The position numbers and the translations under genes were made by a program. Below, in pieces: positions 10,833 to 54,010 of a stretch of DNA of 55,682 nt; within the stretch, counting starts at the first letter, position 1; each line of letters opens with the position of its first letter. The notes under the pieces are model-generated. The model ran no database searches. It was not told the origin of the DNA and was given only the letters and a program-made list of their open reading frames with translations. This DNA comes from a virus (lineage: Duplodnaviria; Caudoviricetes): positions 1-55,682 of IMG/VR virus record IMGVR_UViG_3300036850_000029; one strand, given 5' to 3'.

Positions 10833-10892
10833 GGCTACCTATAAGTAGGAGAACAGGCTTGTAAGGTCAAGGCGGATGGCCTAGGGTTGGGT

Positions 10893-11495
10893 ATGAGATT
10901 CCTCGTCTGTCTTCTGCTTGTTTTCACGGTTGGATGCACTTCTGGTTTGTTCAACAAACGATCTGAAAAACAAGCGATGGATTCGGCTGAGAAGCTGAAC
11001 AGTCAGTCACAGGCGAACCTTGAGCGAGTGATTGAAGGGCAGAAGGAACAGCCAAGGCCGAACATCTCACCGCAGATAGACATCAAAGGATCGAGCAACC
11101 AAGTTGACATCAAGATCCAAGCTCCTCTGCCACCTGAACCAGTTCAACCGTATCGAGAGTTCACTGGGTACGGAACGAGGACGAATCAGAAGGTAACGAC
11201 ATCGCAAAGTTGGTGGTCGGATTACAAGAACACACTGCCGCTTGGAATCTCGATGCTGGCGATTGCCATTGGTGGTTACGCAATCATTGTGCTGTTGAGG
11301 AAGGCTCGACAATCGAGCGCGGCGTTCAATTCAATGGCTGGTATGGTGGACGGTCAAATGGCACATTGGCTGGATGAATTGAACGATCAAATGGCAAAGG
11401 AAAAAGACTCAGACGCACAGGCTAGGATGGCTGTGGACAGGGCGGCCATGGAAAAGTTCCGAGGGAAGTTAGCTGAAATGAAGCCAAAGAAATAG
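10893..11495 (+). CDS. Lipoprotein with internal TM helix (u-spanin-like topology)
   Basis: Lipobox FTVG-C; TM LGISMLAIAIGGYAIIVLL. Confidence 0.55.
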   Translation: MRFLVCLLLVFTVGCTSGLFNKRSEKQAMDSAEKLNSQSQANLERVIEGQKEQPRPNISPQIDIKGSSNQVDIKIQAPLPPEPVQPYREFTGYGTRTNQKVTTSQSWWSDYKNTLPLGISMLAIAIGGYAIIVLLRKARQSSAAFNSMAGMVDGQMAHWLDELNDQMAKEKDSDAQARMAVDRAAMEKFRGKLAEMKPKK

Positions 11496-11522: not shown

Positions 11523-11672
11523 TTGAGCACTTCCACGAGAACCATACCAAGCCTAGCCATTGCTAGCCTCTGCGGATCAGAGCTTGCCACGCCATACCAA
11601 TGCCCCAAGCTATCGGAATTAAGTCGGTTTTCAAGCCTTGATTCCGTCCTTCCATCAGTTACGATTCCAGCC

Positions 11673-11822
11673 ATGAGCACATTTCTATTAGGCAGTTTTT
11701 TGATTTTGTTCGGCTTTACACAACTGGTGAACACATCAATCCCCGCATGGGTGATCGGCTTGCTGGCCTTGGCTGCCGGTGTGGCAACGATCATTGGGAA
11801 GTTGTTTCCGCGGTTGAAATGA
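11673..11822 (+). CDS. 49-aa two-TM membrane peptide (holin/toxin-like)
   Basis: Two hydrophobic helices, basic tail; own TTGATT-N17-TACGAT promoter. Confidence 0.6.
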   Translation: MSTFLLGSFLILFGFTQLVNTSIPAWVIGLLALAAGVATIIGKLFPRLK

Positions 11823-15164: not shown

Positions 15165-15658
15165 GGAAGTATCCTTTGCTCCTGCCAACCCTGTTTCGTC
15201 TTCCTCGCCAGCCACCAGTTAATCATACGGTACTTGGCCGCTGCCGTCTTCAGCTTCACAATCGAATCGTCGCGAATAGGTCCCGCACCCTTCACTTCCC
15301 ATGCTTCAATCAGACCCCCGCTATAGAATACGATGAAATCAGGGCGATACCGGCATCCGTTCGCCAGTGTGAAGTTTATGGCTTGTGCGTAGATCGTGTC
15401 GTCCGGCCTGATCTTGCGCGTCATAATATCGAGCCATTCCCGCTCTGTCTTGTTAATCGCTGGCTTATGTGACTGCCGGATGATCTGCGGCATCTTCGCC
15501 TTCCAGATTTCCTTGTCAGCATCGTGATGCTCAGGAACGTGGATCTTGAACAGATGCGGGTTACGCTTCCGTGTCGCTTCCGAAGGATTGTTCGGCAGGT
15601 TCATTTTCTCTTTGAATAGACGACGCGCACGGATTGTTGCGGCTTCGCGGGAGGTCAT
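15161..15658 (-). CDS. PD-(D/E)XK endonuclease (DUF1064-like, possible resolvase)
   Basis: YRPDF...EVKG motif. Confidence 0.75.
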   Translation of the reverse strand: MTSREAATIRARRLFKEKMNLPNNPSEATRKRNPHLFKIHVPEHHDADKEIWKAKMPQIIRQSHKPAINKTEREWLDIMTRKIRPDDTIYAQAINFTLANGCRYRPDFIVFYSGGLIEAWEVKGAGPIRDDSIVKLKTAAAKYRMINWWLARKTKQGWQEQRILP

Positions 15659-16056
15659 GCGATGGGAATCAGTTCCATTGTTCCATTCGCACGCTTCCGT
15701 TCTCTCGTTGCAGCGGCGTTCTTCATGTGGCGAATCGTGTCGATTCTAAGGTGACATCTCTGGCACATAGCTTTTAGATGGTCCATTCGACCGCACTTCC
15801 TTCCTGTTTGTTCTTCGCAGTCGCACGGGCCACCGGGATAATCGAGATGCGCGATTGTCAGGATCACAGTTCCTTTCGCCCACTTCGCTTTTGAGCCGTG
15901 CATTTCACAGCAACGCCGTGGCCCTCCCGTTGTTCGATGCAATCCGCATTCTCCCGAGCACTCGCAGCGACAATCCGAACGGATCAGGATCTCGGACCGA
16001 ATCTCTGACCAGTTGGCCGGGTAAAGGTGCGACTTCGTTTTGTGGGGCTTGCTCAT
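15655..16056 (-). CDS. HNH endonuclease
   Basis: YP.NW..IR..IL.R..CRCE...LTIAHLD...HL.AMCQRCH. Confidence 0.8.
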   Translation of the reverse strand: MSKPHKTKSHLYPANWSEIRSEILIRSDCRCECSGECGLHRTTGGPRRCCEMHGSKAKWAKGTVILTIAHLDYPGGPCDCEEQTGRKCGRMDHLKAMCQRCHLRIDTIRHMKNAAATRERKRANGTMELIPIA

Positions 16057-16717: not shown

Positions 16718-17110
16718 TCACCTAGAGTATTGATTATACGACGCGCTCAGATTGTAAATGTTAGCCGTCCTTTGAGCGTGCGAATCCGGCTTCCACTTCC
16801 TCCGTTTCGCCCCCGTGAATCCGTGGTGCCAGCAGAGCGCAACATTGGCGGCAGAATCGGCGACACCGGCCTTTCGCATCAGGGTGAGTTTGATGTCGAT
16901 CAGCCGGTGCGCCGGATCGCCCGTGCCTGATAAGCCGAGCCGGGCAAGCTCTCTGAAAGCGATCTTGGAGATTTGATGACGGCCAACTTCACCGGCTTTC
17001 CCGACGGCCTTTGGGTTGTCGTTCGATTCCACCAAAGCCAGCGCGTGCAGGAACCGCTCTCGGTCTATCGGTCCGCACAGCGCAAGGATTAGGAGGATGG
17101 TCGCGTTCAT
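16718..17110 (-). CDS. Lytic transglycosylase (SLT-like) with N-terminal hydrophobic segment
   Basis: ALALVES.DNP.AVG..GEVG..QI...WHHG; N-terminus MNATILLILALC. Confidence 0.75.
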   Translation of the reverse strand: MNATILLILALCGPIDRERFLHALALVESNDNPKAVGKAGEVGRHQISKIAFRELARLGLSGTGDPAHRLIDIKLTLMRKAGVADSAANVALCWHHGFTGAKRRKWKPDSHAQRTANIYNLSASYNQYSR

Positions 17111-17346
17111 TTCGTGAATTCTTTCGGTGGCATTCCGTATCCAGCCTCTGTCGCCAGCCATTTTAGGCGGTCAGGATCTTGACTAAGTCCAGCACCTGCT
17201 ACGCTTCGGCACCATTTACCCCACGTCTCGCCATCTCGAAAATTCATCACATCCGAGATTGATATGAGACGCAGCGCGGAGAGCCTGCACCATTCCAAAC
17301 CGGGAGGAACTTCGGCGATTGTTTGCTTTGTCATTTCAGCTTTCAT
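17107..17346 (-). CDS. Hypothetical protein
   Basis: Coupled ORF. Confidence 0.5.
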   Translation of the reverse strand: MKAEMTKQTIAEVPPGLEWCRLSALRLISISDVMNFRDGETWGKWCRSVAGAGLSQDPDRLKWLATEAGYGMPPKEFTK

Positions 17347-25861: not shown

Positions 25862-26098
25862 TCAGGTTACAGGTTCGGCACAAGTCTTGCATTCTTCGGT
25901 ATTTCCAAGCGTGACTCTCACCTTTTGTTTCCTCCACTCAGGATCGTACATATCCTTCAACATCTCATAGTCTTTCCGCTCAAAATGTATCCTGCCGTTA
26001 ATCACAGACCCCACCTTCAACACAGCCGACAAATAACCAATCGGTCGAACCCTCACCTGCTGACCGATCTGGTTAATTGGAAATGAGACGTAACTCAT
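25862..26098 (-). CDS. Hypothetical protein
   Basis: Coupled ORF. Confidence 0.5.
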   Translation of the reverse strand: MSYVSFPINQIGQQVRVRPIGYLSAVLKVGSVINGRIHFERKDYEMLKDMYDPEWRKQKVRVTLGNTEECKTCAEPVT

Positions 26099-28278
26099 GG
26101 CGGGGTCAAAGGCGTTAAGTCAAATGTAGCATTACAAGCACAAGGCCCAGGCGGGAACGGAAGCGAACCGTTTTGCACTGTCAACGCGATTGTATGAGTG
26201 CCAACCCCCGCTGGAATCAGATGTGTGACAATGTCGCCACCACCTGAAATTCCAGTGCATACTCCGGGTGGACCTCCCGTACCTTGGGTTTGTGAAAACT
26301 CAGAAATCCCGTCCACAACCACGCTCACAAAACTTGCCGCAGATGGCCCATCTATGGCACTCGTTGTTGCGACAGCCCACGTCACCACTTCAATCGACAG
26401 CGTGTATTCATTGCAACTGCCGATCAATGTTGTAGACGCTTCGCAGTTGCCGGGTGGAATATCTGCCGCTACATCCAGACTCACCGTTCCGCCTGCTCCA
26501 GATGAACTGCCACAATCCCCCGTCATCGTCCACACCAAGTCTTGAACTGGATGGTTCACGCACGATTGACATTGAGCATCTGCCATTGCTTGAGCGTCGG
26601 CTAAAGCCTGAGAGTCCGCGTCCGCCTGAGAGACACACGACGAATAACTTCCCGCAGGCACGGTGAATGGACCGCCCGTCTCGCCAATGGGGCATTCCAC
26701 CGTTTGTTCGGAATTTAGAAAGGTGCATCCATTGCAGATGTACATCGTGCAATCGTCGTAGTCAGCTCTCGGCACGAAGGTCCTTCCATCCAAGGACGCC
26801 GGTTGTCCAAGACCGTCTCCGGCCAGAGAACCAAGCGCAGTTCGTTTGCAGGTTATCGTATTGGATGAAGCCTGAATGAAGACCACATTGTTTGATGCCG
26901 CCGAGTTGTGGATCACCAGCAAATCTTCATCCTCATTGATGTCCAAACTCGCAAGGGCAGAAGATGCTTCCGAGACGCTCGCAGTGATGGTGTTTGTTGC
27001 GGGATTGATTACTTTTAGTCCCGGCGTAGCTGAATCTCCCGCCAATCCCAACACATACACTTTGTCCTTGGACTCGAAATAGTAGGACAGACAATTAGTG
27101 CTGCTAAACGCATCCCCATTCGAGATCACTATCTCGTCCACCTCGGTCCCGGAAGGATTGTACACTTTGACGCGATATTCGTTGTTCGCTCCGTCAACTA
27201 GATCCGTGAACGCATACCACGCATAAATGCGATCGTTTGTAGTTGTGTGGGCACAGCGCAACCCAAACCCATACGAATCAACCCCGGGAGTTCCAAGAGG
27301 CAGAGCAACCAAAATCGTTACCGTGTCCGTAAAAACATCAATCTGAAGAATATTTCCATCAGACACCCCAGCCTCCTCCGCCGGGATGTAAACCTTGTCA
27401 TTAATTGTATCCAAACAGAAATGCCTTCCGCTAAGATCCGCAGCCGTCACGGCACCCGGTAAAGTTAATGGTCCCGTCACTCCAAACGTTGTCGGATCAA
27501 TCACGAATAAACCTCCAACGGCGTTTACGTAAACCTTGTTCTGCAACGGGACAAAGATCAGGTTTCGAGGGTCCGATCCAATTGCAATCTGAGTCAATTC
27601 AGTCTCCGTGGCGAAATCAATCACACTCACTGTACCCCCCGCGTTATTCGCCACAAACACATAATCCTCGAAACCGCTCCCTGAAATCGGAGCCATGGCA
27701 GCCGCAGATGGAAAGTCCCCAACGATCACCCGACCATCAGGACTCAAACAACCTTCACAGGAAGATGCCACACAACCCGCCGCAGCCAATCCTTGCGCTA
27801 TCGTTAATGCTTCAGCATTTGCATCTGCCTGAGAAATCATGGAAGCCACGGCATTAGCTGGCACAATGAATGGCCCTCCCGCAAAGCCTTCGGGACAATT
27901 CACTGATTGCTCTACGTTGTAGAAGATAATTGGCCCTCCAATCGGAGTCTGTGCATTAGCCGAATCTTGAGCGCACTTGAGCGCCGCCGCATTGGCTTCA
28001 GCTTGTGTCGCCCCCGTGAACGGTCCCTCGCACGGCGCAGGGCCAGGTGGAAATGCCGGGGTCGGTGGATTGTTGGTGGCTGGTTTGTTGGCATTCGCTG
28101 GGATTGTTACCGTAACCGGTGTGCAATTGTAATTTGGAGGACATTGCGACGTGTAACTGACTTCCTGATTGAAAAACACTTCCACGTCGCTGCCTGCTGC
28201 CGAGTAATTCTCAAACGAATCTTCTCCGCAACAGATCAACGCTTTGCAGGCCGGTTCTGTGTTGCAAACAAGTGGCAT
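26095..28278 (-). CDS. Cys-rich tail/RBP protein with DUF5977-like repeats and YVTN-type beta-propeller
   Basis: Repeats F.N.EQ...CP...VPA....S..SQADA...A; FVAN..GGTVSVID, VINPATNTI blades. Confidence 0.65.
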   Translation of the reverse strand: MPLVCNTEPACKALICCGEDSFENYSAAGSDVEVFFNQEVSYTSQCPPNYNCTPVTVTIPANANKPATNNPPTPAFPPGPAPCEGPFTGATQAEANAAALKCAQDSANAQTPIGGPIIFYNVEQSVNCPEGFAGGPFIVPANAVASMISQADANAEALTIAQGLAAAGCVASSCEGCLSPDGRVIVGDFPSAAAMAPISGSGFEDYVFVANNAGGTVSVIDFATETELTQIAIGSDPRNLIFVPLQNKVYVNAVGGLFVIDPTTFGVTGPLTLPGAVTAADLSGRHFCLDTINDKVYIPAEEAGVSDGNILQIDVFTDTVTILVALPLGTPGVDSYGFGLRCAHTTTNDRIYAWYAFTDLVDGANNEYRVKVYNPSGTEVDEIVISNGDAFSSTNCLSYYFESKDKVYVLGLAGDSATPGLKVINPATNTITASVSEASSALASLDINEDEDLLVIHNSAASNNVVFIQASSNTITCKRTALGSLAGDGLGQPASLDGRTFVPRADYDDCTMYICNGCTFLNSEQTVECPIGETGGPFTVPAGSYSSCVSQADADSQALADAQAMADAQCQSCVNHPVQDLVWTMTGDCGSSSGAGGTVSLDVAADIPPGNCEASTTLIGSCNEYTLSIEVVTWAVATTSAIDGPSAASFVSVVVDGISEFSQTQGTGGPPGVCTGISGGGDIVTHLIPAGVGTHTIALTVQNGSLPFPPGPCACNATFDLTPLTPP

Positions 28279-28280
28279 GG

Positions 28281-30032
28281 CTACCTTCCATACTGCGCTT
28301 CTTCAAACGGTTCGCAATGGGCAATAAACCCATCAATCCGAGCGTGCCCGGTTATCTCAATCCTGAACTGTGCCTCGAAAAAGTTCCTGAACGGAGTTCC
28401 CGAAATCGGATCACAAACATCTGGCGGCTGTGTCAGGATGAGTCTTGTCCGGTATTGCTCGCGATAATCTTGAAACATGAAACAGCCCTCAAGCGGGTCA
28501 GGATCTTCGCATGCGTTCTTCGGGGCGCATTCATCCCACTCTTGCCAATCCAGCCAGCAAGGGTAATTGTCGGGTCGATATTGAACCTTGATATGAACCG
28601 TGCCAGACAACCGCGAAAGATACAGATCCGCTGTGTCGAGTTTCTTCAGGCTGAATGGATTGTTCCAATCAAATCGAGCCGTTTCAACCGTGCTGACTAT
28701 CCGGTTTACTTCATTGTCAAACCGTCCCTCCATCGTCAACTCCCACAATTCGATCTGATAATCCGAGTTCAGAACAAACGCAAAGCAACGATCTCTGCCG
28801 CCAAAATCGGCTGTCACAAGCTTCAACACATTCAACCCTGTCCATGCTCCGTCCCATGCTGGCGGTAGTTTCTCGCCAATGCTGGAGATAAGATCGTAAT
28901 CGAGAACGGCAAGCGCACGATGCATCACGCCGAAGTTGGTTCGCAACGGGCTGATTGTTCCGATGAACCGATTGTCGAACAAGGTGGCACTACCGAATTC
29001 CAGCAATGCCCGATCATCCCGTTCCATTGCCCGATTCATTTCCTTGCTGATCGGTGTATTTCCCCATGCGAGGAATTCACGCTTGGCCATGAACAACGTT
29101 CGGAATCCGTCCTTGCTTCGATAGAACACGTCGCCGTTCACGTCCACAACACTGTCCTGAGCCGTGCTGCCGAAGTTGTGCATGATGATGCGCTGGAGAG
29201 GTTCAGTCAAAGCAGCCCAATCAGTTCGCAACGGTGGCACACGCACGGAATAAATCGTGTTCCTTGTCATCACCAACAATTCACCCTCGCCAAGAGCCGA
29301 ATCGTTATTGATAGTCTTGTGGACAGACGTGATGTTCCCGGCATTGGATGGCACTGTGAACACGCCGCCACCAGCAAGGAACGTGTTCTCTATGATCTTC
29401 AGAATTGCATCACGCCGATACGGCAGGATGGTTCCGCTTGGACCTCCAACAATATCACCGGCAATGAAGAACCTTCCTTGAGCAATCCAGATCCGGCCCA
29501 TGTAATACTCCATCATCTTCCCTGTCTTCAGTTCATTGGCAGGATTAGCGCGTCGGCTGGTTGTTCCATCGAAGATGATTGGCAACGAAAAGCCGTCTTG
29601 AAGTATCCAATAGTTCTCACCTTGAATTGACCAGTTCGGAATCAGGTTCGGTGGGTTTGGATCACCGGGAATGCTGATATCCTCAACCGAATAATCCGTG
29701 GTGACATTGATCTTGTGCATCACTCCACCAACAACCGCGATCAAAAAGGTGTCGCCGCTGTCTGGATCGTAATAGTCCGCATGTTGAAATCGTCCAGTGA
29801 GCCATGCCGCTTCCAAGTCGGGATCATTCCACACCAGCGTTCGTCGCACCCAGGCAGGCCGAGTCTTGAGTGACCCGCCTCGAAACGTCGTGTTCAGAGC
29901 ATACGATGATTGAGTGCGCTTAAGTCCATTGGGGTTGCGTACGGATTGAATGCCAGGATTCTTGCCGGAATCTATCCCCGCGCTTTGTTCTCGGAATCCG
30001 TCTGAAATACGTTTGAGCGCGCGAACACTCAT
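28281..30032 (-). CDS. Tail nozzle/DNA-stabilisation (P22 gp10-like) protein
   Basis: 583 aa beta-rich, YMGRIW, VNGDVFYRS..G; position. Confidence 0.6.
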   Translation of the reverse strand: MSVRALKRISDGFREQSAGIDSGKNPGIQSVRNPNGLKRTQSSYALNTTFRGGSLKTRPAWVRRTLVWNDPDLEAAWLTGRFQHADYYDPDSGDTFLIAVVGGVMHKINVTTDYSVEDISIPGDPNPPNLIPNWSIQGENYWILQDGFSLPIIFDGTTSRRANPANELKTGKMMEYYMGRIWIAQGRFFIAGDIVGGPSGTILPYRRDAILKIIENTFLAGGGVFTVPSNAGNITSVHKTINNDSALGEGELLVMTRNTIYSVRVPPLRTDWAALTEPLQRIIMHNFGSTAQDSVVDVNGDVFYRSKDGFRTLFMAKREFLAWGNTPISKEMNRAMERDDRALLEFGSATLFDNRFIGTISPLRTNFGVMHRALAVLDYDLISSIGEKLPPAWDGAWTGLNVLKLVTADFGGRDRCFAFVLNSDYQIELWELTMEGRFDNEVNRIVSTVETARFDWNNPFSLKKLDTADLYLSRLSGTVHIKVQYRPDNYPCWLDWQEWDECAPKNACEDPDPLEGCFMFQDYREQYRTRLILTQPPDVCDPISGTPFRNFFEAQFRIEITGHARIDGFIAHCEPFEEAQYGR

Positions 30033-30316
30033 TTAGCCGCCTTCATGGATTTAATTTCGTGAATCAACTGGTTAAGAACGTCCCGCGTGTTTTCTTTCGG
30101 AAACAAAGTGTCTTTCCCTTGAACTTCCCACCACACAAATACGGCTGCAAACACTCCAGTAGCCCAGATCACCTTATTCTCAAGCTTCTTTACCCGATCG
30201 TCCATATCGGAGAAGCCCTTCCCCATAGCGGCCTCAATCTTGCCCATCCTGTCATCGCCCTGCTTTAAGACAGCAATGATGGATTCATTTACCACTTCCT
30301 GACGATTCTTCTTCAT
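30029..30316 (-). CDS. Single-TM coiled-coil protein (holin-like)
   Basis: RVKKLENK followed by TM VIWATGVFAAVFVWW. Confidence 0.5.
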   Translation of the reverse strand: MKKNRQEVVNESIIAVLKQGDDRMGKIEAAMGKGFSDMDDRVKKLENKVIWATGVFAAVFVWWEVQGKDTLFPKENTRDVLNQLIHEIKSMKAAK

Positions 30317-30740
30317 TCAGTTTTTGCAGTTCAAACAAAGCCCGTTTGGCTCTCAATCGGTTGGTGGCGTGATGCCGCTGCCAAGCGTGCTTTAGAATAC
30401 GAGTGAAGCATCGGTCTTTAAGATGCGATTTCAAGACGTAATCTTCCGCCCCAGCGTTGAAGCATCTGGCTTCCAGAACGTCGTCGTCTTCCTTTGTTAG
30501 AACCACAATGGCGCTATCCAAACTCATCGAGAATATGGATCGAATGGTTTCGTCTGGAGAAACTTCAAGGTGCAGATCCAGAAGCGTGATGTCTGGACGC
30601 ATCGTATGCACCATCGGCTGCCCTGCCATCAGGCTGTTGTAAGACGTAACCTTGAACAGCAACCCCACGTAATCGTCCGAGAACCGCTCATTGACGAGCG
30701 TTTTTACGATTGGATCATCATCTATCAGAATGACCGACAA
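30285..30740 (-). CDS. Stand-alone response regulator receiver (CheY-like)
   Basis: ILIDDD, PDITLLDLHL, IVVLT, GAEDYVLK. Confidence 0.88.
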   Translation of the reverse strand: MSVILIDDDPIVKTLVNERFSDDYVGLLFKVTSYNSLMAGQPMVHTMRPDITLLDLHLEVSPDETIRSIFSMSLDSAIVVLTKEDDDVLEARCFNAGAEDYVLKSHLKDRCFTRILKHAWQRHHATNRLRAKRALFELQKLNEEESSGSGK

Positions 30741-30755
30741 TGTGCGTCTCAGACA

Positions 30756-31160
30756 TCATTCCTCGATTATAGGTTCGAGAGCAGCCAGCACCCCGGCAGG
30801 AATGGCGTTCGTCGGACACGAATCAACTCGTTGACCGTCTGGCGTAGTCACCTTATCCGTTCCATCACCAACACGCAACTCTGCCAGCTTCAGCTTGTGC
30901 GGCTCAAACTCAGTCGTGCCGTCGAGCAACGCACCCCATTCCTCCAGATACGCCCTGCCCTCGTCTGAGTCCTGAGCCAGTTGTTTGCTGCCATTGGCGT
31001 GCTTGGCGATCAACTTCTGTTGCGCCGTCTTCAGATCACCGGCTGCCGTACGCACCTTGCGCAGATTCTTGGCGAGTTTCCACGTTGTCACGCCATCAAA
31101 TTTGAACGTGTCCAGAGAGTTCAAGGCTTTGTCCAGTGCGAGCAGGTCCAGGTTTGTCAT
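30756..31160 (-). CDS. Hypothetical helical protein (tail-associated chaperone-like)
   Basis: WKLAKN...LIAKHA...ALEPII pattern typical of phage tail regions. Confidence 0.55.
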   Translation of the reverse strand: MTNLDLLALDKALNSLDTFKFDGVTTWKLAKNLRKVRTAAGDLKTAQQKLIAKHANGSKQLAQDSDEGRAYLEEWGALLDGTTEFEPHKLKLAELRVGDGTDKVTTPDGQRVDSCPTNAIPAGVLAALEPIIEE

Positions 31161-31255
31161 AGGTTATGGGTTTGTGTTCTCGAATCGTTCAGACAATAGG
31201 CATGGTAGGGCAGAAGGTCAATCCTCCCACACGTTGTAGTATTATCCCCTGCATG

Positions 31256-31444
31256 TTAAGCCGTCGCAGGGATCTCCCAGTCCAGATACGTTCGTGTCAA
31301 CGTAGTTTTCATGGTGTCCCGGTCCTCCGTGAAGGTGTAGCCTTCAAGGTTTCCATTCGGAAAACGAGTTTCAAGAAACGCTTTGACTTGATTGCAATCA
31401 TCCGTGTTCTGGCATTCGATGATGTATGTTTCCGTGACCTTCAT
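31256..31444 (-). CDS. Hypothetical protein
   Basis: GGAAGGA RBS. Confidence 0.5.
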   Translation of the reverse strand: MKVTETYIIECQNTDDCNQVKAFLETRFPNGNLEGYTFTEDRDTMKTTLTRTYLDWEIPATA

Positions 31445-31456
31445 AATGTTCCTTCC

Positions 31457-32092
31457 TCAATCTCCCACGGCGAAATATCGCCAGTTAAGGGCCAAGTTGG
31501 TTCCGGCAGAATATTCGACGATTGTCGCATTAGTTTCCGTCACTGAAAAGGAATGCTTATGATGGTACTCAAACGACCTATCATGGGTATGACCTCCTCC
31601 GGCTGGCGTTGTTCCTGAAAACGGATCTAAGTCCACACTATGCACATGAGTGTAAATGTTAGAGCCAAGCGCGACTGCATCCACTCCACCTCCTCCTGAT
31701 ACGGGCGCGGACGACGTAGCCGATGGATGATCGTGATCAATGTTATGGAAATGACCGGACGGGGGAGTTTCTCCGGTGGCGAACTTAGAGGCTCTCACAG
31801 TCACACCGGACGGCTGTCCCGATACGTTTCCGATGGTGGCTTTGTCGAATCGATCTCTCATCACTTTAACGACAGCCTTTCCTGGGGCGAATGCTCCTGT
31901 CGTATCCTGGTTAAGAATGACCTCAATATCGTCGGCTGTCGTACCCGCTTCATCATAAATGGACAGGAATCTCAGGAAGCTGAAGGACGCGGATAGGTCC
32001 ACAAGGAACCCACCCGTGACATAGGAAGCAGGCCCCGTGACGCTTCCAGTCGCGATGATCGGAATTGTAACTGTATCGAGTATGGCTGCCAT
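31457..32092 (-). CDS. HxH metal-needle fibre protein, paralog 3
   Basis: TGPASY.TGG N-terminus, five HxH. Confidence 0.7.
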   Translation of the reverse strand: MAAILDTVTIPIIATGSVTGPASYVTGGFLVDLSASFSFLRFLSIYDEAGTTADDIEVILNQDTTGAFAPGKAVVKVMRDRFDKATIGNVSGQPSGVTVRASKFATGETPPSGHFHNIDHDHPSATSSAPVSGGGGVDAVALGSNIYTHVHSVDLDPFSGTTPAGGGHTHDRSFEYHHKHSFSVTETNATIVEYSAGTNLALNWRYFAVGD

Positions 32093-32093
32093 G

Positions 32094-32696
32094 CTATTCG
32101 GTGGCGCGGTAAAAGAAGGTCGCTCCAGAAAGGTTTATTGCTACGGTTTGCGCCGTGGTCCTGTCAGTCTCCGTGTTCGTCGCCGAATGTTGATGCTGGT
32201 AAATGTTGTCAAACGTATGCGTATGAGCTGAACCTGGTCCGGTATTTCCAACGAAGTTGGGAGGATCAAAGGAATGCGTATGTGATTCGATATTCGGTGA
32301 TCCGACAGCATCCAGAGTGGTTCCTCCTCCAGTGAGATTGTTTGCGCCAGAAGTCACGGCTGCATGATTGTGATCCATGTTGTGAGTGTGAGCCGATTCG
32401 TTGTCATATGTTTGTCCGGCTGTAAACTGTTCGGTCACTCCGGCTGGGAGTCCGGCCATTCCTTCGATGCTTAGGAGTGCCTCGTAATATCGTTGGTCCA
32501 TGTTTATGCTTACTTGGCCAGCAGCTGGCGAGTTCCTTGTCCACCGAAACACAGCGGTTGAAAGATTGGCTCCTCGAACGCTCACGAACAACTGGAAATG
32601 GTTTACGGTGGTCAGCCCCGTGGTGATAATAATTGGGGTGGTCTGGTCCAGATAGGCAGGTCCTGTGAACGAATTGGTTTCAATGCGAACACTCAT
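32094..32696 (-). CDS. HxH metal-needle fibre protein, paralog 2
   Basis: FTGPA N-terminus, five HxH. Confidence 0.7.
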   Translation of the reverse strand: MSVRIETNSFTGPAYLDQTTPIIITTGLTTVNHFQLFVSVRGANLSTAVFRWTRNSPAAGQVSINMDQRYYEALLSIEGMAGLPAGVTEQFTAGQTYDNESAHTHNMDHNHAAVTSGANNLTGGGTTLDAVGSPNIESHTHSFDPPNFVGNTGPGSAHTHTFDNIYQHQHSATNTETDRTTAQTVAINLSGATFFYRATE

Positions 32697-33358
32697 AACT
32701 TCACTCCGGTGGCGCACAGATACCATGTGGTTGCGCTGAGATTGGTAGTGCTTCCGAGTTCTACTAGCGCGAATTTCAGAAAATCATGAATGACATCATG
32801 AGAATGTTGATAAATGGAGTTGTCCCGGTGATAATGGTTTTGGTCAGGAACGCTGGATGTCCCGGTTAAATTGGGAATGTCCAATGTGTGCGTGTGGGAT
32901 GATAGATTAGGACCTGCGGCGTCCAGAAGGACTGATCCCCCTCCATTGTTGTTCACTCCAGAACTGAATGAACCATGATTATGGTCAATCGAGTGGGTGT
33001 GTGACCCCTCTGGACCTGACTCAGCCCCGAGCGCGTCCAGCGTGAGAACCAAGATTGGAACATCGGTTGGGTTTCCTACGGAGACACGATTGTAACGCTT
33101 TCGCACAATTTTCACCTTGGCCTTTCCAGAAGAAGGAGCGTTCAGTGTGATTTCATAAAGCACAGCGGGAAGGTTCGGACCGCGCGACCCTTTCTTGACA
33201 ACAAGCTCCAAGGAATTAAGCGAAGAAAAGGTTTTGCTGAGATCGACGGTGAACCCTCCAGTCGTATAGGACGCCGGACCTGTAAATTCATCAGCGATTG
33301 TGTGCTGATTGAATGTTGCAGCAACTCCACCGCCTCCAAATGGTCCGTAATAAGCCAT
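32693..33358 (-). CDS. HxH metal-needle fibre protein, paralog 1
   Basis: FTGPASYTTGG N-terminus, five HxH. Confidence 0.7.
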   Translation of the reverse strand: MAYYGPFGGGGVAATFNQHTIADEFTGPASYTTGGFTVDLSKTFSSLNSLELVVKKGSRGPNLPAVLYEITLNAPSSGKAKVKIVRKRYNRVSVGNPTDVPILVLTLDALGAESGPEGSHTHSIDHNHGSFSSGVNNNGGGSVLLDAAGPNLSSHTHTLDIPNLTGTSSVPDQNHYHRDNSIYQHSHDVIHDFLKFALVELGSTTNLSATTWYLCATGVKL

Positions 33359-33359
33359 G

Positions 33360-35168
33360 CTATGCGTAGTCGATGTTCACAACCAAAGCTGTTGCTGGGG
33401 CTGTCCCGCCTCCCGGCGTCGTCGTGGCTGCAATTGATATGGCCGTTGAAAACTGAATCCCCACGCCAAATGATGTGTCAACTCCCACTTGCGATGTTGC
33501 ATTGGATTGCAACGCCACGCTGCGTGTTGGAACAGTGGTTCCCACGACAACGCTTCCTGAAGCCAAGTCGTAGAAATGCAGGTAAGCCAAAGCCACTCCG
33601 GGGTTGAAGATATTGTAACTCCACACTTTCCCAGCAGCAGCTTTCACAGCAACCGCTGTATTTGTCACGGCTGCATTCCGAAACGGTGTTGCGCCGCCTG
33701 TGGTTCCAACCACAGGAGCCACAGTGGAACCTGAAACATCCACTTTATCCGTTGCAAATACCAAGTTTCGGATGTCCAGATCCGTCGCTGAAACAACCCA
33801 CGGCGATGTTGATTGCGTCACTGCAACAGTGCCGGTGATTGTAGTGGACGTGAGAGATACCACCCAAGGGCTTGTTCCCTGAGTAACGGTGGTTGTTTCC
33901 AGAGCCGTCAATGTGGCCGAATCCAAGGCCACAACAGAACCGCCCACGTCCACCTTATCAGTAGCAAAAACGAGATTTCGTATGTCCAGATCAGTTGCCG
34001 ATACGACCCATGGACTGGTTGATTGAGTCACTGAGACTGTCCCGGTTATCGTAGTTGATGTCAGCGAAACAACCCACGGACTGGTCCCCTGATTTGCCGT
34101 CACCGTTCCGATAACTGGCTGAGTTGCAGGGAAATTGCTTACCGACACAGATGAACCAGAAGCATCAACTTTGTCTGTGGCGAATACCAAGTTCCTGATA
34201 TCCAGATCCGTAGCGGATACCACCCACGGGGAAGTTCCTTGAAGAACGGTAATCGTTTCAAGAGCCGTCAACGTGGCAGCATCCAGAGCCACTACACTTC
34301 CGCTGGCATCGACTTTATCCGTGGCAAACGCGAGATTTCTGATGTCCAAATCCGTCGCCTGAACTGTCAGCGTGATCGACGAAACGATATTCACGTCTTG
34401 GGTGCCAGAGGGAATAGTTGTCACCGTCCCCGATACTGTCCAAGGCGACGTTCCTTGCAGAACAGTGATCGTCTCTAATGCCGCCAATGTTGCAACGTCG
34501 AGTGCCACTATGCTCCCGCTCGTATCCACCTTGTCTGTTGCAAAGGATAGGTTACGAATGTCGAAATCGGTTGCGGCAACAGTGAGTGTGATCGAACTGA
34601 CAATGTTTACATCCTGAGTACCTGACGGTGTAAACGTTCCTGAGACAACCCAAGGTGAAGTGCCCTGTAGGACCGTGATGGTTTCGAGGGCGGTAAGTGT
34701 GGCTGCGTCCAAAGCCACGACTGAGCCCGACACATCGACCTGATCTGTCGCAAAGTCCAAGTCCCAAGTCCTGCCCACGCTCCAGACGCCGCTTTGCGTC
34801 ACTGCAACTGTAGCAGGAAAGTTGCTGACACTGACAACCCATGGGGAAGTTCCTTGGTTAACCGTCACTGTCCCATCAACCGTCCATGGGTTTGTGCCTT
34901 GTAGAACCGTAATTGTTTCAAGGGCAGCGAGGGTAGCGGCATCGAGGGCAATCACTGATCCGCTGGCGTCAACTTGGTCAGTGGCAAAATCAAGTGTCCA
35001 TGTCCTCCCAAGATCACCTGATACAACGAGAGGAACTGAACTGACAATGTTAACGTCTGTGAGTCCGACTGGAGGAATGCCGCTGGAAATACCTTCGGCA
35101 ATGAGCGCGAGAAGCTGCCTGTCACTCAGGCATGTGTAGCAACCGGCTGGTTGAGGAGTGTCAGCCAC
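33360..35168 (-). CDS. Repetitive Thr/Ser/Val-rich fibre protein
   Basis: DIRNL.FATDKVD x5, LET.TV.QGT.PW x5; N-terminal GCYTCL. Confidence 0.7.
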   Translation of the reverse strand: MADTPQPAGCYTCLSDRQLLALIAEGISSGIPPVGLTDVNIVSSVPLVVSGDLGRTWTLDFATDQVDASGSVIALDAATLAALETITVLQGTNPWTVDGTVTVNQGTSPWVVSVSNFPATVAVTQSGVWSVGRTWDLDFATDQVDVSGSVVALDAATLTALETITVLQGTSPWVVSGTFTPSGTQDVNIVSSITLTVAATDFDIRNLSFATDKVDTSGSIVALDVATLAALETITVLQGTSPWTVSGTVTTIPSGTQDVNIVSSITLTVQATDLDIRNLAFATDKVDASGSVVALDAATLTALETITVLQGTSPWVVSATDLDIRNLVFATDKVDASGSSVSVSNFPATQPVIGTVTANQGTSPWVVSLTSTTITGTVSVTQSTSPWVVSATDLDIRNLVFATDKVDVGGSVVALDSATLTALETTTVTQGTSPWVVSLTSTTITGTVAVTQSTSPWVVSATDLDIRNLVFATDKVDVSGSTVAPVVGTTGGATPFRNAAVTNTAVAVKAAAGKVWSYNIFNPGVALAYLHFYDLASGSVVVGTTVPTRSVALQSNATSQVGVDTSFGVGIQFSTAISIAATTTPGGGTAPATALVVNIDYA

Positions 35169-35182
35169 ATTAAATCACAACG

Positions 35183-35377
35183 TTAAAACTGTTTCATTCT
35201 CAGCGTCATCTGTCGCCTTGTTTTGCAGTCTTCGATCGTGACTCTATGAATCAGCCCGTAATCCCTGAATGTGTAGATAAAACGGGACCGATCATCAATC
35301 TGCATCTCGCTTCCGGTAATTGAACGTTGCCACGATCTGAGTTTCTTTTCATTTTCTCCATTAATCGCAAAGTCCAT
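35183..35377 (-). CDS. Hypothetical protein
   Basis: Packed ORF. Confidence 0.45.
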   Translation of the reverse strand: MDFAINGENEKKLRSWQRSITGSEMQIDDRSRFIYTFRDYGLIHRVTIEDCKTRRQMTLRMKQF

Positions 35378-36123
35378 TATATGACAGCGTTAGCGTTCAG
35401 TTTCACCCATGCACCAGCCGCATTGAAAACACCACGAAACGCCACATCCGTTCCACCTATAACCGATGTGTAGGTGAACAAGAGCGTTCCTCCAGCCACG
35501 TCGTTATGTACTTCCACGGTTGGGTTGGTTGAGGCAGGCATGAGAAACAGTATGTTGATGATGTCGCCCTCGTCTGCGTCTGTCAGCTTGAGCGAATATG
35601 TCGCCGTGTAAGGTCCAGCCCCGGCATCAACCGTGGCAATCAGAGAATGTTCAGTTGCCGTGGCACCAATCGTCACGTCCACATTACCAGCCGCACCAAT
35701 CGTTGATTCAGCGTAGGTGTTCGCTCCACCGGCTGCCCCTGTCGTTCCTGTATCACCCTTGAGTCCAGCCGCAGATACTTCCGCTCCCGAAGGAATCACC
35801 ACAGCCGGTGCCGCATTGCCTGTGTAACCAAGGTTCTTCAGCACAACCTCTGTATCCAATGGCTTGCTGATGACCTCGTAATAACCGCCTGTCTCAATGA
35901 AGACAATCTGACCGGGAGAAATCCAAACGGAACTATCAACTTCAGCCGTTACATTGGCATTCGCCGCAGGCTGAGTGAATGACGCTGAGAGATGAGTGAA
36001 AGCGTTTTCACCATCTGCACCGTCTGCACCGTCAATGCCATTCGGTCCCGGCACCTGAACCGTCGGTGTGTCTTCGCACGTCGTCGAGCAACAGACTTCG
36101 TTTGATGTTGAGGCTTCAGCCAT
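35377..36123 (-). CDS. Structural protein with short collagen-like segments
   Basis: GPNGIDGADGADGEN; GLKGDTGTTGAAG. Confidence 0.6.
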   Translation of the reverse strand: MAEASTSNEVCCSTTCEDTPTVQVPGPNGIDGADGADGENAFTHLSASFTQPAANANVTAEVDSSVWISPGQIVFIETGGYYEVISKPLDTEVVLKNLGYTGNAAPAVVIPSGAEVSAAGLKGDTGTTGAAGGANTYAESTIGAAGNVDVTIGATATEHSLIATVDAGAGPYTATYSLKLTDADEGDIINILFLMPASTNPTVEVHNDVAGGTLLFTYTSVIGGTDVAFRGVFNAAGAWVKLNANAVI

Positions 36124-36550
36124 GTGCTTCCTTCCAAACATGAGCCAGCTTGTCTGACTCGATCTTTTCCCTCATCGCTTGGCCGATCTCCATTGCGTTC
36201 TTTCCCGGCATCGCGTGAGCCACATCCATGAACATCGCCATACAGCCGAGCTTTATTCTGTCCATGTCTTGTGCGCGACCGGTGTCAGATAACGCCTCTC
36301 GAATCTTGCCGAACGTCTGAATGTCATCCCAACCATGCTCCATTGCGCTTGCGAAATAGTGGGGGATTGAAACGACACAGGACCGTTTCTCCGCTTCATC
36401 CATTGTGTTCGTCAATGGCAGCCCGTGTGTATCTGCCATCTGGAAAGCCCCACCAAGCACCATCCTGCCATCAGCCGTGAAACCACACAGACACAATGGC
36501 CCACTCAGTGGCACGGACAAGCTTGGGTGAGATGTATAGGCTTCAGCCAT
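36116..36550 (-). CDS. Hypothetical protein
   Basis: Packed ORF. Confidence 0.55.
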   Translation of the reverse strand: MAEAYTSHPSLSVPLSGPLCLCGFTADGRMVLGGAFQMADTHGLPLTNTMDEAEKRSCVVSIPHYFASAMEHGWDDIQTFGKIREALSDTGRAQDMDRIKLGCMAMFMDVAHAMPGKNAMEIGQAMREKIESDKLAHVWKEAHG

Positions 36551-45272: not shown

Positions 45273-45884
45273 ATGCAAAGGAAATCATCTCTGAACATTA
45301 CAGGCGTATTGGATCTTCCGGAGGAAAGTCCGGCATTGGGAAGGCGAAAGCGCGACCGTCATGGCAGGCTAAAATGGCTGCCGACGCGAGATGGTCTAAA
45401 TCCAAGAACGCGCGAGGGAGCCATATTAGACTTCAAGAATAGAGTATCAATTGATGCCGCTACAGGATGCTGGATCTGGATGGGTCATATAAGGCCAGAT
45501 GGATATGGGCGCTTCATGTTTGCTAATGAGATTTACGCGAACCGTGCCAGTTGGGCTTTGTTTAATGGTAGCATTCCTGATGGCATGATGGTGCTTCACA
45601 AATGCCCCAATGGACATAATCGGAGCTGTGTTAATCCTAATCATCTTTACCTTGGAACACATTTACAGAATATGGCCGACAAGCAATTGAACGGCACGAA
45701 CCGATCATCATACGGAGAAACTCACTATAGAGCGTTGTTAACCGATGAACAGGTTAAAGAAATAAGACGTGTTCATCGGAAAGGAATTCGTGGATTCGGG
45801 ATGAGGGCTTTGTCTAAACGATTTGGAGTCGCAGAATCGACTGTCTTTGCAATTATTCATAGAATAAACTGGAAGCACATTTAA
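45273..45884 (+). CDS. HNH homing endonuclease with C-terminal HTH
   Basis: GCWIW.G...GYG...VLHKC...CVNPNHL..GT..QN. Confidence 0.9.
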   Translation: MQRKSSLNITGVLDLPEESPALGRRKRDRHGRLKWLPTRDGLNPRTREGAILDFKNRVSIDAATGCWIWMGHIRPDGYGRFMFANEIYANRASWALFNGSIPDGMMVLHKCPNGHNRSCVNPNHLYLGTHLQNMADKQLNGTNRSSYGETHYRALLTDEQVKEIRRVHRKGIRGFGMRALSKRFGVAESTVFAIIHRINWKHI

Positions 45885-52963: not shown

Positions 52964-53908
52964 TTAGACATCAAGTTCACACGATTTATCAAAAGCCCGT
53001 TCAGCACAAGAACATGGAATGTCAGGCTCGGAGTTCGCCGGTTCATCGAAGAGGTCTTTTTCATTTGCGAGTTGCTCGATTAGTTCGTAAGGCTCTCCTA
53101 GCCTAAAGTGTTTTCCGTTTCGGGTCTCTCCGTTTGCAGATTTCTTGGATTCCCACCCCTTCCACCACCCAAGCAATCCCGGATTCTCTTTGACCAGCTT
53201 CACTCGTTTCCATTTCGCTTTCAAAAAGCAAAGATCGCAGTTTCCTTGGTAACTCTTCAGCCTCAGATCGAAACAATTCTCCTGCCAGAACTTAATTACG
53301 TCCGCTTCGGTCACGCCCCACTCAACCAAAGGAAAACGTGGGTGCTCGAAACTGTCGCAATTAGCGAGGATCTGGATTGATCGGTGGCTTTCGTCTTTTC
53401 TGATTCCAATGATGCTTGCGTATTCTTTCAGCCCGATGGAGAACAGATACCGCATCGCCGTGCGTATCTTGAGTTGGATGGAGCATCCTCGACTTACCAC
53501 ATTCGGAAGCACGGTCATCCAGTTAAGCAGTTCATCGAATGGCTCCCCACGCCTGCTGGCCGTTTCATAGGTAACGATTTTGTACCAGTGAACAGTCTCT
53601 CCGATGGCTGCGGCTTTTGCGAGATTGGCGTTTCTTCTCGCCGTAGGGAAAATGCCATCAGGAATATCAGATGCCAGTTTTCGGGTGTACTCTACCCATA
53701 CAATGGGAACCTCCCATCTGGTCTGGACTTCATTGACGAAATCGAGTGTTTCCGGCATCTCCTTGCCTGTGTTGCAGAATATCGTGACATAATCATCCCG
53801 ATAGTGTGGATATGCGTCGAGCAACTTACGAAGCATGAACCCACTTGTTCTTCCACCGGAAAAGAGCACAGCGGGTTGGGGGGCCTTAATGTGAATTGGT
53901 TCGCTCAT
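52964..53908 (-). CDS. PAPS-reductase-like (PP-loop) protein
   Basis: FSGGRTS, NTGKE..ETLDFV, IGIRKDE, GNCDLCFLK. Confidence 0.8.
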   Translation of the reverse strand: MSEPIHIKAPQPAVLFSGGRTSGFMLRKLLDAYPHYRDDYVTIFCNTGKEMPETLDFVNEVQTRWEVPIVWVEYTRKLASDIPDGIFPTARRNANLAKAAAIGETVHWYKIVTYETASRRGEPFDELLNWMTVLPNVVSRGCSIQLKIRTAMRYLFSIGLKEYASIIGIRKDESHRSIQILANCDSFEHPRFPLVEWGVTEADVIKFWQENCFDLRLKSYQGNCDLCFLKAKWKRVKLVKENPGLLGWWKGWESKKSANGETRNGKHFRLGEPYELIEQLANEKDLFDEPANSEPDIPCSCAERAFDKSCELDV

Positions 53909-53909
53909 T

Positions 53910-54010
53910 GTAATAAAACGACCCCAGCATCCAATGGCGTGATCGTCGGGCTTTGAAAACCCTAGAAACTCAGATGCCGGGGCCAAGATTTATTGTGTTC
54001 GATCACGCGC
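53910..54010 (-). promoter_or_regulatory. Pseudoknot/switch leader of the PAPS-reductase-like gene
   Basis: Crossing stems 53920-53931/53973-53984 and 53937-53945/54000-54008. Confidence 0.55.

Follow-up and report, generated by a model that had tools for sequence, protein, structure and literature searches.

A stand-alone receiver in the tail-fibre module of an uncultivated soil phage and its small overlapping neighbour

What would a tailed phage do with a lone receiver, when neither an output domain nor a kinase comes with it? This question is raised by a minus-strand gene found in an IMG/VR virus record (IMGVR_UViG_3300036850_000029; linear, 55,682 b, guanine-plus-cytosine content about 0.51), the whole of which is referred to in this work as the window. 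The completeness of the record was estimated by CheckV at about 64%, no tRNA genes were found in it, and its source is an uncultivated soil phage that belongs to a large podovirus-like group. The gene encodes a receiver of 151 amino acids (aa) and overlaps the start of an open reading frame (ORF) for a 95-aa protein, which is followed in turn by the gene for a 583-aa protein resembling a tail hub. To our knowledge, no phage orphan receiver has an established function, and the way in which phages time lysis in response to host physiology is understood for few systems. Orphan CheY-like receivers have already been annotated in phages (under PHROG 731 and as auxiliary metabolic genes termed "CheY-like") and published, and the one described here is a new, very divergent member, provided with a helical stalk.

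A stand-alone receiver with a helical stalk

The 151-aa product is a genuine stand-alone receiver, that is, a single-domain response regulator, with a stalk extending its helix alpha5 and without an output domain. The receiver family PF00072 matched residues 3-111 with 39.6 bits (cut-off 30.2, E 6.6e-10; 39.8 bits in the whole-genome profile search) and was the sole family reported at E<=0.01, the best PHROG was phrog_731 (E 8.4e-14), which has no assigned function, and the 21 PDB sequences matched at E<=0.01 were, without exception, response regulators, with EvgA as the best. A model obtained with AlphaFold2 from a 20-row alignment (predicted local distance difference test, pLDDT, 92.8; predicted template-modelling score 0.85) has five strands and five helices in the (beta-alpha)5 order, and its comparison with the PDB by Foldseek yielded at least 443 matches at E<=0.001, all the matches listed being receivers or receiver fusion constructs. 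A sequence-only reading made earlier of this DNA had stated that no output domain is present, and this was confirmed: behind the PF00072 region, the residues of the polypeptide form one helix and nothing else. This stalk is strongly basic, and its C-terminal motif is shared with the nearest stand-alone relative (P0002, see below). The near-full-length Foldseek matches (133-149 columns) were RssB, WspR, LvrB and DgcR, all of them composed of a receiver and a stalk helix.

The same reading had considered all the catalytic positions to be intact, and indeed D7/D8/D9, D55, T82, Y101 and K104 fall in conserved columns. Across the 20 aligned sequences D8, D55 and K104 never vary and T82 hardly does, the column of D7 contains D or E, and the position of T82 is T or S both in the aligned relatives and in phage receivers. 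Y101 and K104 are also invariant in a seven-row alignment made of four Alteromonas phage receivers, the receiver of the window and its two nearest metagenomic relatives. By this complete catalytic set, the protein is predicted to be competent for phosphorylation. Its codon usage is phage-like (the mean log relative synonymous frequency is 0.051 and falls inside the range of the genome) and, therefore, the gene is not a fresh, unadapted insert. A different kind of phage receiver, the cyclic-phosphate processing receiver (cREC) of jumbo phages, is described in PMC7824862; its family, PF20274, did not match the protein, for which PF00072 alone was reported, and the neighbouring genes include no NAD or ADP-ribose enzymes.

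As for a kinase, the absence claimed for the genome holds in the 55.7 kb at hand, where HATPase_c (PF02518), HisKA (PF00512) and Hpt (PF01627) found no match, and it is valid solely for them because the record is only about 64% complete. None of the three exceeded the cut-off in the complete relative G007, described below, or in the Alteromonas phages A5, V22 and PB15. For a receiver that has neither a kinase nor an output domain, any phosphorylation must come from host donors.

Judged from its sequence, the receiver is very isolated and very divergent. A tblastn search found no match at E<=1e-3 in 50,697 GenBank phage records, scans of IMG/VR with one sequence at a time (the receiver, the 95-aa protein, the 583-aa protein) gave no matches, and a word-indexed search returned only a truncated copy of the receiver itself, from its own records. 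An exhaustive phmmer search of 1.84 billion representatives produced 5,228 matches at E<=1e-3, just 42 of which reached E<=1e-10. The best non-self match, P0002, is a bare receiver (148 aa, 39% identity, E 1.2e-20) and, like P0018 and P0087, the other nearest stand-alone receivers, it is a singleton on a Logan contig of at most 6.3 kb. When the 25 top matches were scanned with Pfam, 19 proved to be receivers from hybrid kinases or from proteins of the GGDEF/EAL, PAS/GAF, SpoIIE or HD kinds, the other six being receiver-only; fusions of a receiver to a transmembrane (TM) segment were absent from the 39 non-self top receiver matches of up to 340 aa. Scans of metagenomes and genomes with receiver alignments retrieved generic receivers alone (29 and 17 loci, respectively), scattered over the taxonomy, and the best match of the genome scan, the sole one of these loci examined, is a NarL-type regulator (L038). 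In IMG/VR, the receiver alignment A2 pointed to three loci, one of which (L003) looks like a bacterial fragment. A scan with another alignment, A6, gave no match.

Table 1. Features of the receiver locus, of the surrounding module and of the Alteromonas phage loci compared with it.
Feature	Position	Strand	Basis or occurrence
Receiver gene, 151 aa, TTG start	30285..30740	-	ORF list, PF00072, phrog_731, AlphaFold2, Foldseek
Codons D7-D8-D9, acidic metal-binding residues after beta1	30714..30722	-	Alignment with the DD pair of EvgA
Codon D55 (GAT), predicted phospho-acceptor at the end of beta3	30576..30578	-	Invariant column in all alignments
T82 (30495-30497), Y101 and K104 (30429-30431), switch and catalytic residues	30429..30497	-	Alignments
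Alpha5 prolonged as a single 36-residue helix (residues 111-146), basic stalk with nothing behind	30303..30410	-	DSSP on the AlphaFold2 model
95-aa ORF, ATG start, candidate membrane partner: N-terminal part helical, a single hydrophobic segment, C-terminal tail of 30 residues	30029..30316	-	
Hydrophobic segment of the 95-aa protein (residues 49-63), 15 uncharged, aromatic-rich residues	30128..30172	-	Kyte-Doolittle
Overlap of 32 nucleotides (nt), receiver 3' end and first ATG of the 95-aa ORF	30285..30316	-	ORF coordinates
134-aa ORF upstream of the receiver	30756..31160	-	TGA stop in frame with the receiver ORF
583-aa tail hub- or nozzle-like protein	28281..30032	-	610 homologues at E<=1e-5; homologue in 78/80 related loci
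178-aa gene downstream of the hub			Homologue in 52/80 loci
332-aa gene downstream of the hub			Homologue in 57/80 loci
397-aa gene downstream of the hub			Homologue in 30/80 loci
254-aa fibre-anchor homologue	35377..36141	-	Homologue in 45/80 loci; phrog_31840 common to the L069 tail-fibre protein
599-aa protein, distant large terminase subunit		opposite	Homologue in 42/80 loci
Variable tail-fibre block upstream of the receiver: anchor homologue, 602-aa repeat protein, three His-rich paralogues	31457..36141	-	
Receiver within a lysis cassette, Alteromonas phages	L035 10251..12365; L055 3211..5290; L056 3205..5146; L057 1260..3237		A5, V22, PB15, XX1924, as listed

The overlapping gene and the tail-fibre module

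The overlap between the two genes, already pointed out in the sequence-only reading, stands at 32 nt, a figure that presumes that the 95-aa ORF starts at its first ATG; the IMG gene calls give the same lengths for both products. The receiver residues encoded in the overlap correspond to the low-confidence C-terminal tail of the AlphaFold2 model, and the stop of the 95-aa ORF overlaps in turn the ATG of the 583-aa one. From the gene overlap, translation of the receiver appears to be coupled to that of a small protein in which a hydrophobic segment is present.

The 95-aa protein has no homologues beyond its own record and no PDB relative. Its description as a coiled coil has a sub-threshold match behind it, to DUF7201 (PF23831), a family of viral coiled-coil proteins (17 bits versus a cut-off of 27; 14.5 bits in the genome search), and the same model gives sub-cut-off signals in seven of 14 control genomes. 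In the ESM Atlas, with a feature score of 0.90, the protein lies near viral clusters of 80-98 aa, some of them DUF7201 (27 of 30 matches were DUF7201-type), which is a lead and not a test. As far as its sequence indicates, it is at most a small, helical, probably membrane-associated protein.

Upstream of the receiver lies an ORF for a 134-aa protein with no Pfam or PHROG family and no PDB relative, whose AlphaFold2 model (pLDDT 40.2) is too low in confidence to be used. Its TGA stop (30738..30758 region, minus strand) is in frame with the receiver, five codons before the TTG start. A read-through of this TGA, fusing both products, was considered and rejected, given that TGA ends 24 of the 40 genes tallied and that the receiver start lies at a normal distance before beta1; the in-frame stop was judged a coincidence, since TGA is the commonest stop among the genes of the window. 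Promoter-like sites numbered 13, versus 7.9 +/- 2.8 expected, and terminator-like sites are at chance level; one promoter-like site (31221..31193, minus strand) precedes the 134-aa ORF and was not treated as evidence. No RNA dataset was listed with the stretch 28200-31500, which is present in one DNA run labelled as soil metagenome, and PADLOC gave no match for the receiver or for the 95-, 134-, 62- and 727-aa proteins.

That the pair belongs to a tail operon, as had been proposed, is borne out by a tail-fibre anchor homologue and the hub-like gene on its two sides and by a 1491-aa protein, encoded downstream, which resembles the large virion proteins of podoviruses. The context was investigated by scanning IMG/VR with an alignment of the 583-aa protein, which revealed 373 relatives, the best 80 loci being analysed. 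The 583-aa protein scores 0.98 in the ESM Atlas to viral clusters, one of which contains 17% of PF11134 (Phage_stabilise), and this suggests a tail hub or nozzle, a reading taken as a lead. The gene that adjoins the hub gene in most relatives encodes 360-450 aa, and its N-terminal part matches the 254-aa protein of the window; in locus L069 (that of G007) this hub-abutting gene matches tail-fibre PHROGs. Besides the receiver and the 95-aa protein, the interval of about 5.3 kb that separates anchor from hub in the window encodes the 602-aa protein, the 62-aa and 134-aa ones and three His-rich paralogues. Homologues of the 602-, 211-, 62- and 134-aa proteins, of the receiver and of the 95-aa protein were absent from the 80 loci at E<=0.01 and, consequently, the receiver and its neighbour are regarded as cargo of a hypervariable tail-fibre module.

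The three tandem paralogous ORFs (211, 210 and 221 aa; 31457..33358, minus strand) have no family match, are rich in motifs of the His-x-His type and may encode metal-binding trimeric fibre or needle proteins. The 602-aa protein (33360..35168, minus strand), also without a family match, is made of many internal repeats, nearly identical and about 40-50 residues long, and a distinct C-terminal domain. Between the hub and the conserved 178-aa gene, a 727-aa protein (26095..28278, minus strand) combines DUF5977 repeats with a YncE-like beta-propeller; because none of the 80 related loci encodes a homologue of it, its gene represents a second variable insertion next to the hub. Elsewhere in the window, two HNH endonuclease genes and a PAPS-reductase-like gene (45273..45884, plus strand; 15655..16056 and 52964..53986, minus strand) are ordinary phage cargo.

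What the receiver may do

The best explanation of the locus, put forward here as a tentative choice that falls somewhat short of being probable, is that the phosphorylation-competent receiver is accessory cargo of the tail-fibre module and acts through a membrane partner on a late event. In this mechanism, the receiver would be expressed with the late tail genes, and host histidine kinases or Hpt proteins, or else acetyl phosphate, would phosphorylate D55. The phosphorylated form would then act by contact with a protein, for which the co-translated 95-aa membrane-type product is the likeliest candidate, so that a late inner-membrane event would come to depend on the phospho-signalling state of the host. 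The leading candidate for this event would be the control of lysis timing, with the control of superinfection or of the envelope as the alternative. The mechanism is the best single guess because lone receivers of phages are repeatedly, and apparently independently, associated with small membrane proteins, which in Alteromonas phages form part of a lysis cassette.

The Alteromonas examples are the clearest. According to two papers (PMC7289586, PMC10579305), V22 gp30 (149 aa) and A5 gp11 (147 aa) are "CheY-like" and count as class II auxiliary metabolic genes within a shared "host recognition module"; in both main texts, the words holin, spanin and endolysin do not occur. Literature searches on phage-encoded response regulators or CheY, on DUF7201 and on response regulators combined with lysis cassettes retrieved no paper linking a receiver with lysis, within a coverage that left out most subscription journals. 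A search with A5 gp11 matched 34 GenBank records labelled as phage, most of them unannotated assemblies apart from the six that were examined, and two of these were dropped: Komp_PAO1_1, in which the match lies opposite an annotated coding sequence, and Y11, an unverified, unannotated record in which it falls within a 542-aa frame of bacterial-looking DNA.

In four Alteromonas phages, the lone receiver sits inside a lysis cassette (Table 1). The order in A5 is tail fibre, chaperone, gp10 (helical, 122 aa, weakly hydrophobic over an N-terminal stretch whose Kyte-Doolittle maximum is 1.19), the receiver gp11, and then gp12, which overlaps the receiver end by 35 nt and is an Rz-like spanin (phrog_4297, E 2.9e-8), gp13, with two TM helices and holin-like, and gp14, annotated as an endolysin. 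V22 has an A5-like order in which the overlap amounts to 32 nt and a papain-like amidase lies upstream, and the IMG/VR kin L059 and L060 keep the V22/A5 order, with a visible embedded lipoprotein ORF typical of an o-spanin; an endolysin gene adjoins downstream in A5 and L060, and the amidase upstream in V22 and L059. A second receiver lineage is found in PB15 (KX982260) and XX1924 (MN592896), where a 4-TM protein and a 101-aa protein, composed of a coiled coil and a C-terminal TM helix, precede the receiver. The 101-aa protein matches phrog_937 (XhlA-like, "hemolysin") with E 1.8e-16 and 1.2e-12. After the receiver comes, in PB15, an endolysin (phrog_894) and, in XX1924, a DUF5675 protein, and then a holin (phrog_3427, PF11351) in both. 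All four receivers keep the DD, D, S/T, Y and K residues. Finally, in the IMG/VR locus L002 (5689..6630, plus strand; an 82-kb contig estimated to be 16% complete) a receiver is fused to a strong TM segment and a charged tail, the latter weakly similar to an Rz-like spanin (E 0.0046), with ORFs read by eye as peptide deformylase-like and vWA-like adjoining.

Within the group of the window itself, the conservation of the gene pair, which the sequence-only reading had proposed as a check, gave a weak positive. The single related record with PF00072 is that of G007 (locus L069; 51.7 kb, 100% complete), where the genes leading to the hub run from a 423-aa protein through a 140-aa receiver (78 bits), an 88-aa protein and a 113-aa ORF to a tail-fibre gene; the 88-aa protein has a 4-nt overlap with the receiver and a clear C-terminal TM helix. 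G007 is like the window in its hub protein (47% identity) and in that the receiver gene leads straight into that of a small protein (about 90 aa) bearing a hydrophobic anchor, in the same module upstream of the hub. The G007 receiver differs in being only 25% identical (pairwise E 1e-5), in having an N-terminal extension, in having a K-P motif and in lacking the stalk, and the pair is separated from the hub by the 113-aa ORF and the tail-fibre gene. For the small partners, the pairwise comparison gave E 0.04, a score reached by 27 of 1000 shuffles.

A number of observations weigh against the membrane-partner mechanism. The 95-aa protein had been described as having a single TM helix and, in fact, it contains one uncharged segment of 15 residues, but its Kyte-Doolittle maximum over 19 residues (1.33, at residue 49) is marginal for a membrane span and not above that of the strands of soluble receivers. 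The term holin-like was not upheld, as the protein matched no holin, spanin or XhlA family (Pfam at E<=0.01 and E<=1, PHROGs at E<=5) and no endolysin is adjacent. Neither an endolysin nor a spanin lies beside the 95-aa ORF, its neighbours being the receiver and the hub-like gene; there is no endolysin within 13 kb, and PF00959 and PF01510 have no match in the record. The sole endolysin candidate found is a 147-aa ORF (16718..17161, minus strand), hydrophobic over an N-terminal stretch, whose score for SLT transglycosylase is 20.8 bits versus a cut-off of 21.3; it closes the late operon, behind the gene of the 1491-aa virion protein. On the plus strand, a 202-aa ORF (10887..11495) combines a signal of the lipoprotein type with a strong TM segment in its interior (Kyte-Doolittle 2.42), and downstream of it a 99-aa ORF (11523..11822) has two strong hydrophobic segments. 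These two ORFs, even without a family match, are better spanin- or holin-like candidates than the 95-aa one, and together with the 147-aa ORF they are the better lysis-gene candidates of the record, at a distance from the pair. The link with lysis is weak in this window because no recognisable holin, spanin or endolysin stands beside the pair.

The tie between the receiver and the 95-aa protein also counts against the mechanism, since it consists of the gene overlap alone, and phage genomes commonly contain small TM ORFs, whose adjacency could be due to chance. PF00072 is found in one of the 80 related IMG/VR records (1/50 plus 0/30), many of which are short fragments, and in one of the ten that are at least 90% complete; for its rarity among the 80, the receiver has to be regarded as dispensable for the phage group. 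The receiver-TM pairs of the window and G007 are not demonstrably homologous: as judged from their sequences, the design recurs, and common descent is not shown. Lastly, the residue following T82 (T+1) is Lys in the window and Gly in five and Ala in one of six aligned relatives, and bulky T+1 residues slow phosphotransfer.

A wider proposition, and a rather unlikely one, would be that the lone receiver plus a small membrane partner, whether separate, overlapping or fused, constitutes a module repeatedly and independently assembled by tailed phages, through which a late inner-membrane event, most likely the triggering of the holin and hence the moment of lysis, would be tied to host phospho-signalling, the window carrying a version placed in a tail-fibre module.

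Among the alternatives, a phosphate sink or decoy survives best, being doubtful but still a serious contender. A soluble orphan receiver would compete for a host kinase or Hpt protein, or drain it by fast autodephosphorylation, blunting, late in infection, one of the two-component responses of the host (for example to envelope stress, or in a pathway linked to defence or motility), and the 95-aa neighbour would be unrelated to it. Such sink-type single-domain regulators are established in bacteria, the catalytic residues are intact, an output domain and, in the record, a phage kinase are both absent, and the nearest relatives, in 19 of the 25 top matches scanned, are receivers of hybrid kinases and of proteins with GGDEF or PAS domains. 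A sink does not explain, however, why unrelated phage receivers are repeatedly found beside, overlapping or fused with membrane proteins, and a place in the late operon would be an odd timing for host takeover; besides, no host or target pathway can be identified, because the homologues of the receiver are taxonomically scattered.

The stalk invites another reading, here held to be improbable, in which the receiver and its helix would form heterodimers with a host protein of the receiver-stalk-output type (WspR, DgcR, RssB) and act as a dominant-negative subunit that blocks a dimer-dependent output, for instance the synthesis of cyclic di-GMP. It would account for the single 36-residue helix alpha5, for the full-length structural matches with the receiver and stalk of WspR, RssB, DgcR and LvrB, for sequence matches that reach query residues 130-145 in multidomain proteins and for the stalk motif kept in P0002. 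Yet the heptad pattern is weak by eye, the strong basicity would fit other partners equally well and, since the G007 and Alteromonas receivers lack such a stalk, stalk blocking cannot be the general logic of phage receivers.

There is an equally slim chance that the receiver fold serves as a scaffold, with a phosphorylation-independent role in the structure or assembly of the tail-fibre module, as a chaperone or adaptor. This would fit the position of the gene between the tail-fibre genes and the hub gene, and the Alteromonas CheY-like genes are grouped, in PMC10579305, with the host-recognition module. Against it, every catalytic residue is retained both here and in the four Alteromonas receivers of two lineages. 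Pseudo-receivers typically lose such residues, and a protein absent from 79 of 80 relatives sharing the hub is not a core assembly factor.

That the receiver and the 95-aa ORF might be neutral passengers at a recombination hot spot, without a selected function, is very improbable: the anchor-hub region is hypervariable, with seven queried proteins around the hub (602-, 211-, 62-, 134-, 95- and 727-aa proteins and the receiver) lacking homologues in the 80 loci, and the receiver occurs in one of 80 relatives, but the frame is intact, the catalytic set complete, the codon usage phage-like and the packing tight and overlapping, and the design recurs in unrelated phages.

Should the membrane-partner mechanism be right, with receivers reading host kinases and acting on membrane partners, it would provide a direct route from host two-component signalling to a late decision of the phage, and a compact switch for engineered lysis. 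The window adds a second receiver example in the same phage group, and the comparison made here places the published Alteromonas examples inside lysis cassettes.

Comparison with known systems

The window is one of the less clear instances of the association of receivers with membrane proteins. It resembles V22 and A5 in that a lone receiver of about 150 aa with an intact catalytic set and no phage kinase is found at the distal end of the tail-fibre module, with phrog_731 as its best PHROG and a 3' end that overlaps the next gene by 32-35 nt. The differences lie in the sequence, where the similarity is generic (22% identity over 59 residues, pairwise E 0.007), in the long basic stalk, absent from the V22 and A5 proteins, and in what comes downstream: an Rz-like spanin, a holin-like gene and an endolysin in these phages, the 95-aa protein and then the hub in the window. 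With such an identity, and with no tblastn match at E<=1e-3, the window receiver does not belong to the V22 gp30/A5 gp11 lineage. PB15 and XX1924 are similar to the window because the lone receiver stands directly beside a small protein, after the tail-fibre genes; in these two phages that protein has a coiled coil and a single, strong C-terminal TM helix, is encoded upstream of the receiver and matches phrog_937, and a holin of the GTA_holin_3TM type follows. The 95-aa protein did not match phrog_937 at E<=5, nor could it be aligned by BLASTP with the PB15 member of that family.

Among bacterial single-domain response regulators, CheY, Spo0F, DivK and CpdR share with the window protein a receiver-only architecture and a complete catalytic set. 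These regulators act by protein contact or phosphotransfer and have their cognate kinases in the same genome, whereas the window receiver is encoded by a phage, is kinase-less in the record and has an alpha5 stalk of 36 residues. In the latter respect, it is closer to WspR (3bre, 3i5a), DgcR (6zxb), RssB (3f7a, 3eq2) and LvrB (8vc9), which also have a long alpha5 and were aligned over 133-149 columns with template-modelling scores by query of 0.66-0.73. There, what comes after the helix is an output of the GGDEF, PP2C-like or kinase type, whereas the protein of the window ends after the helix.

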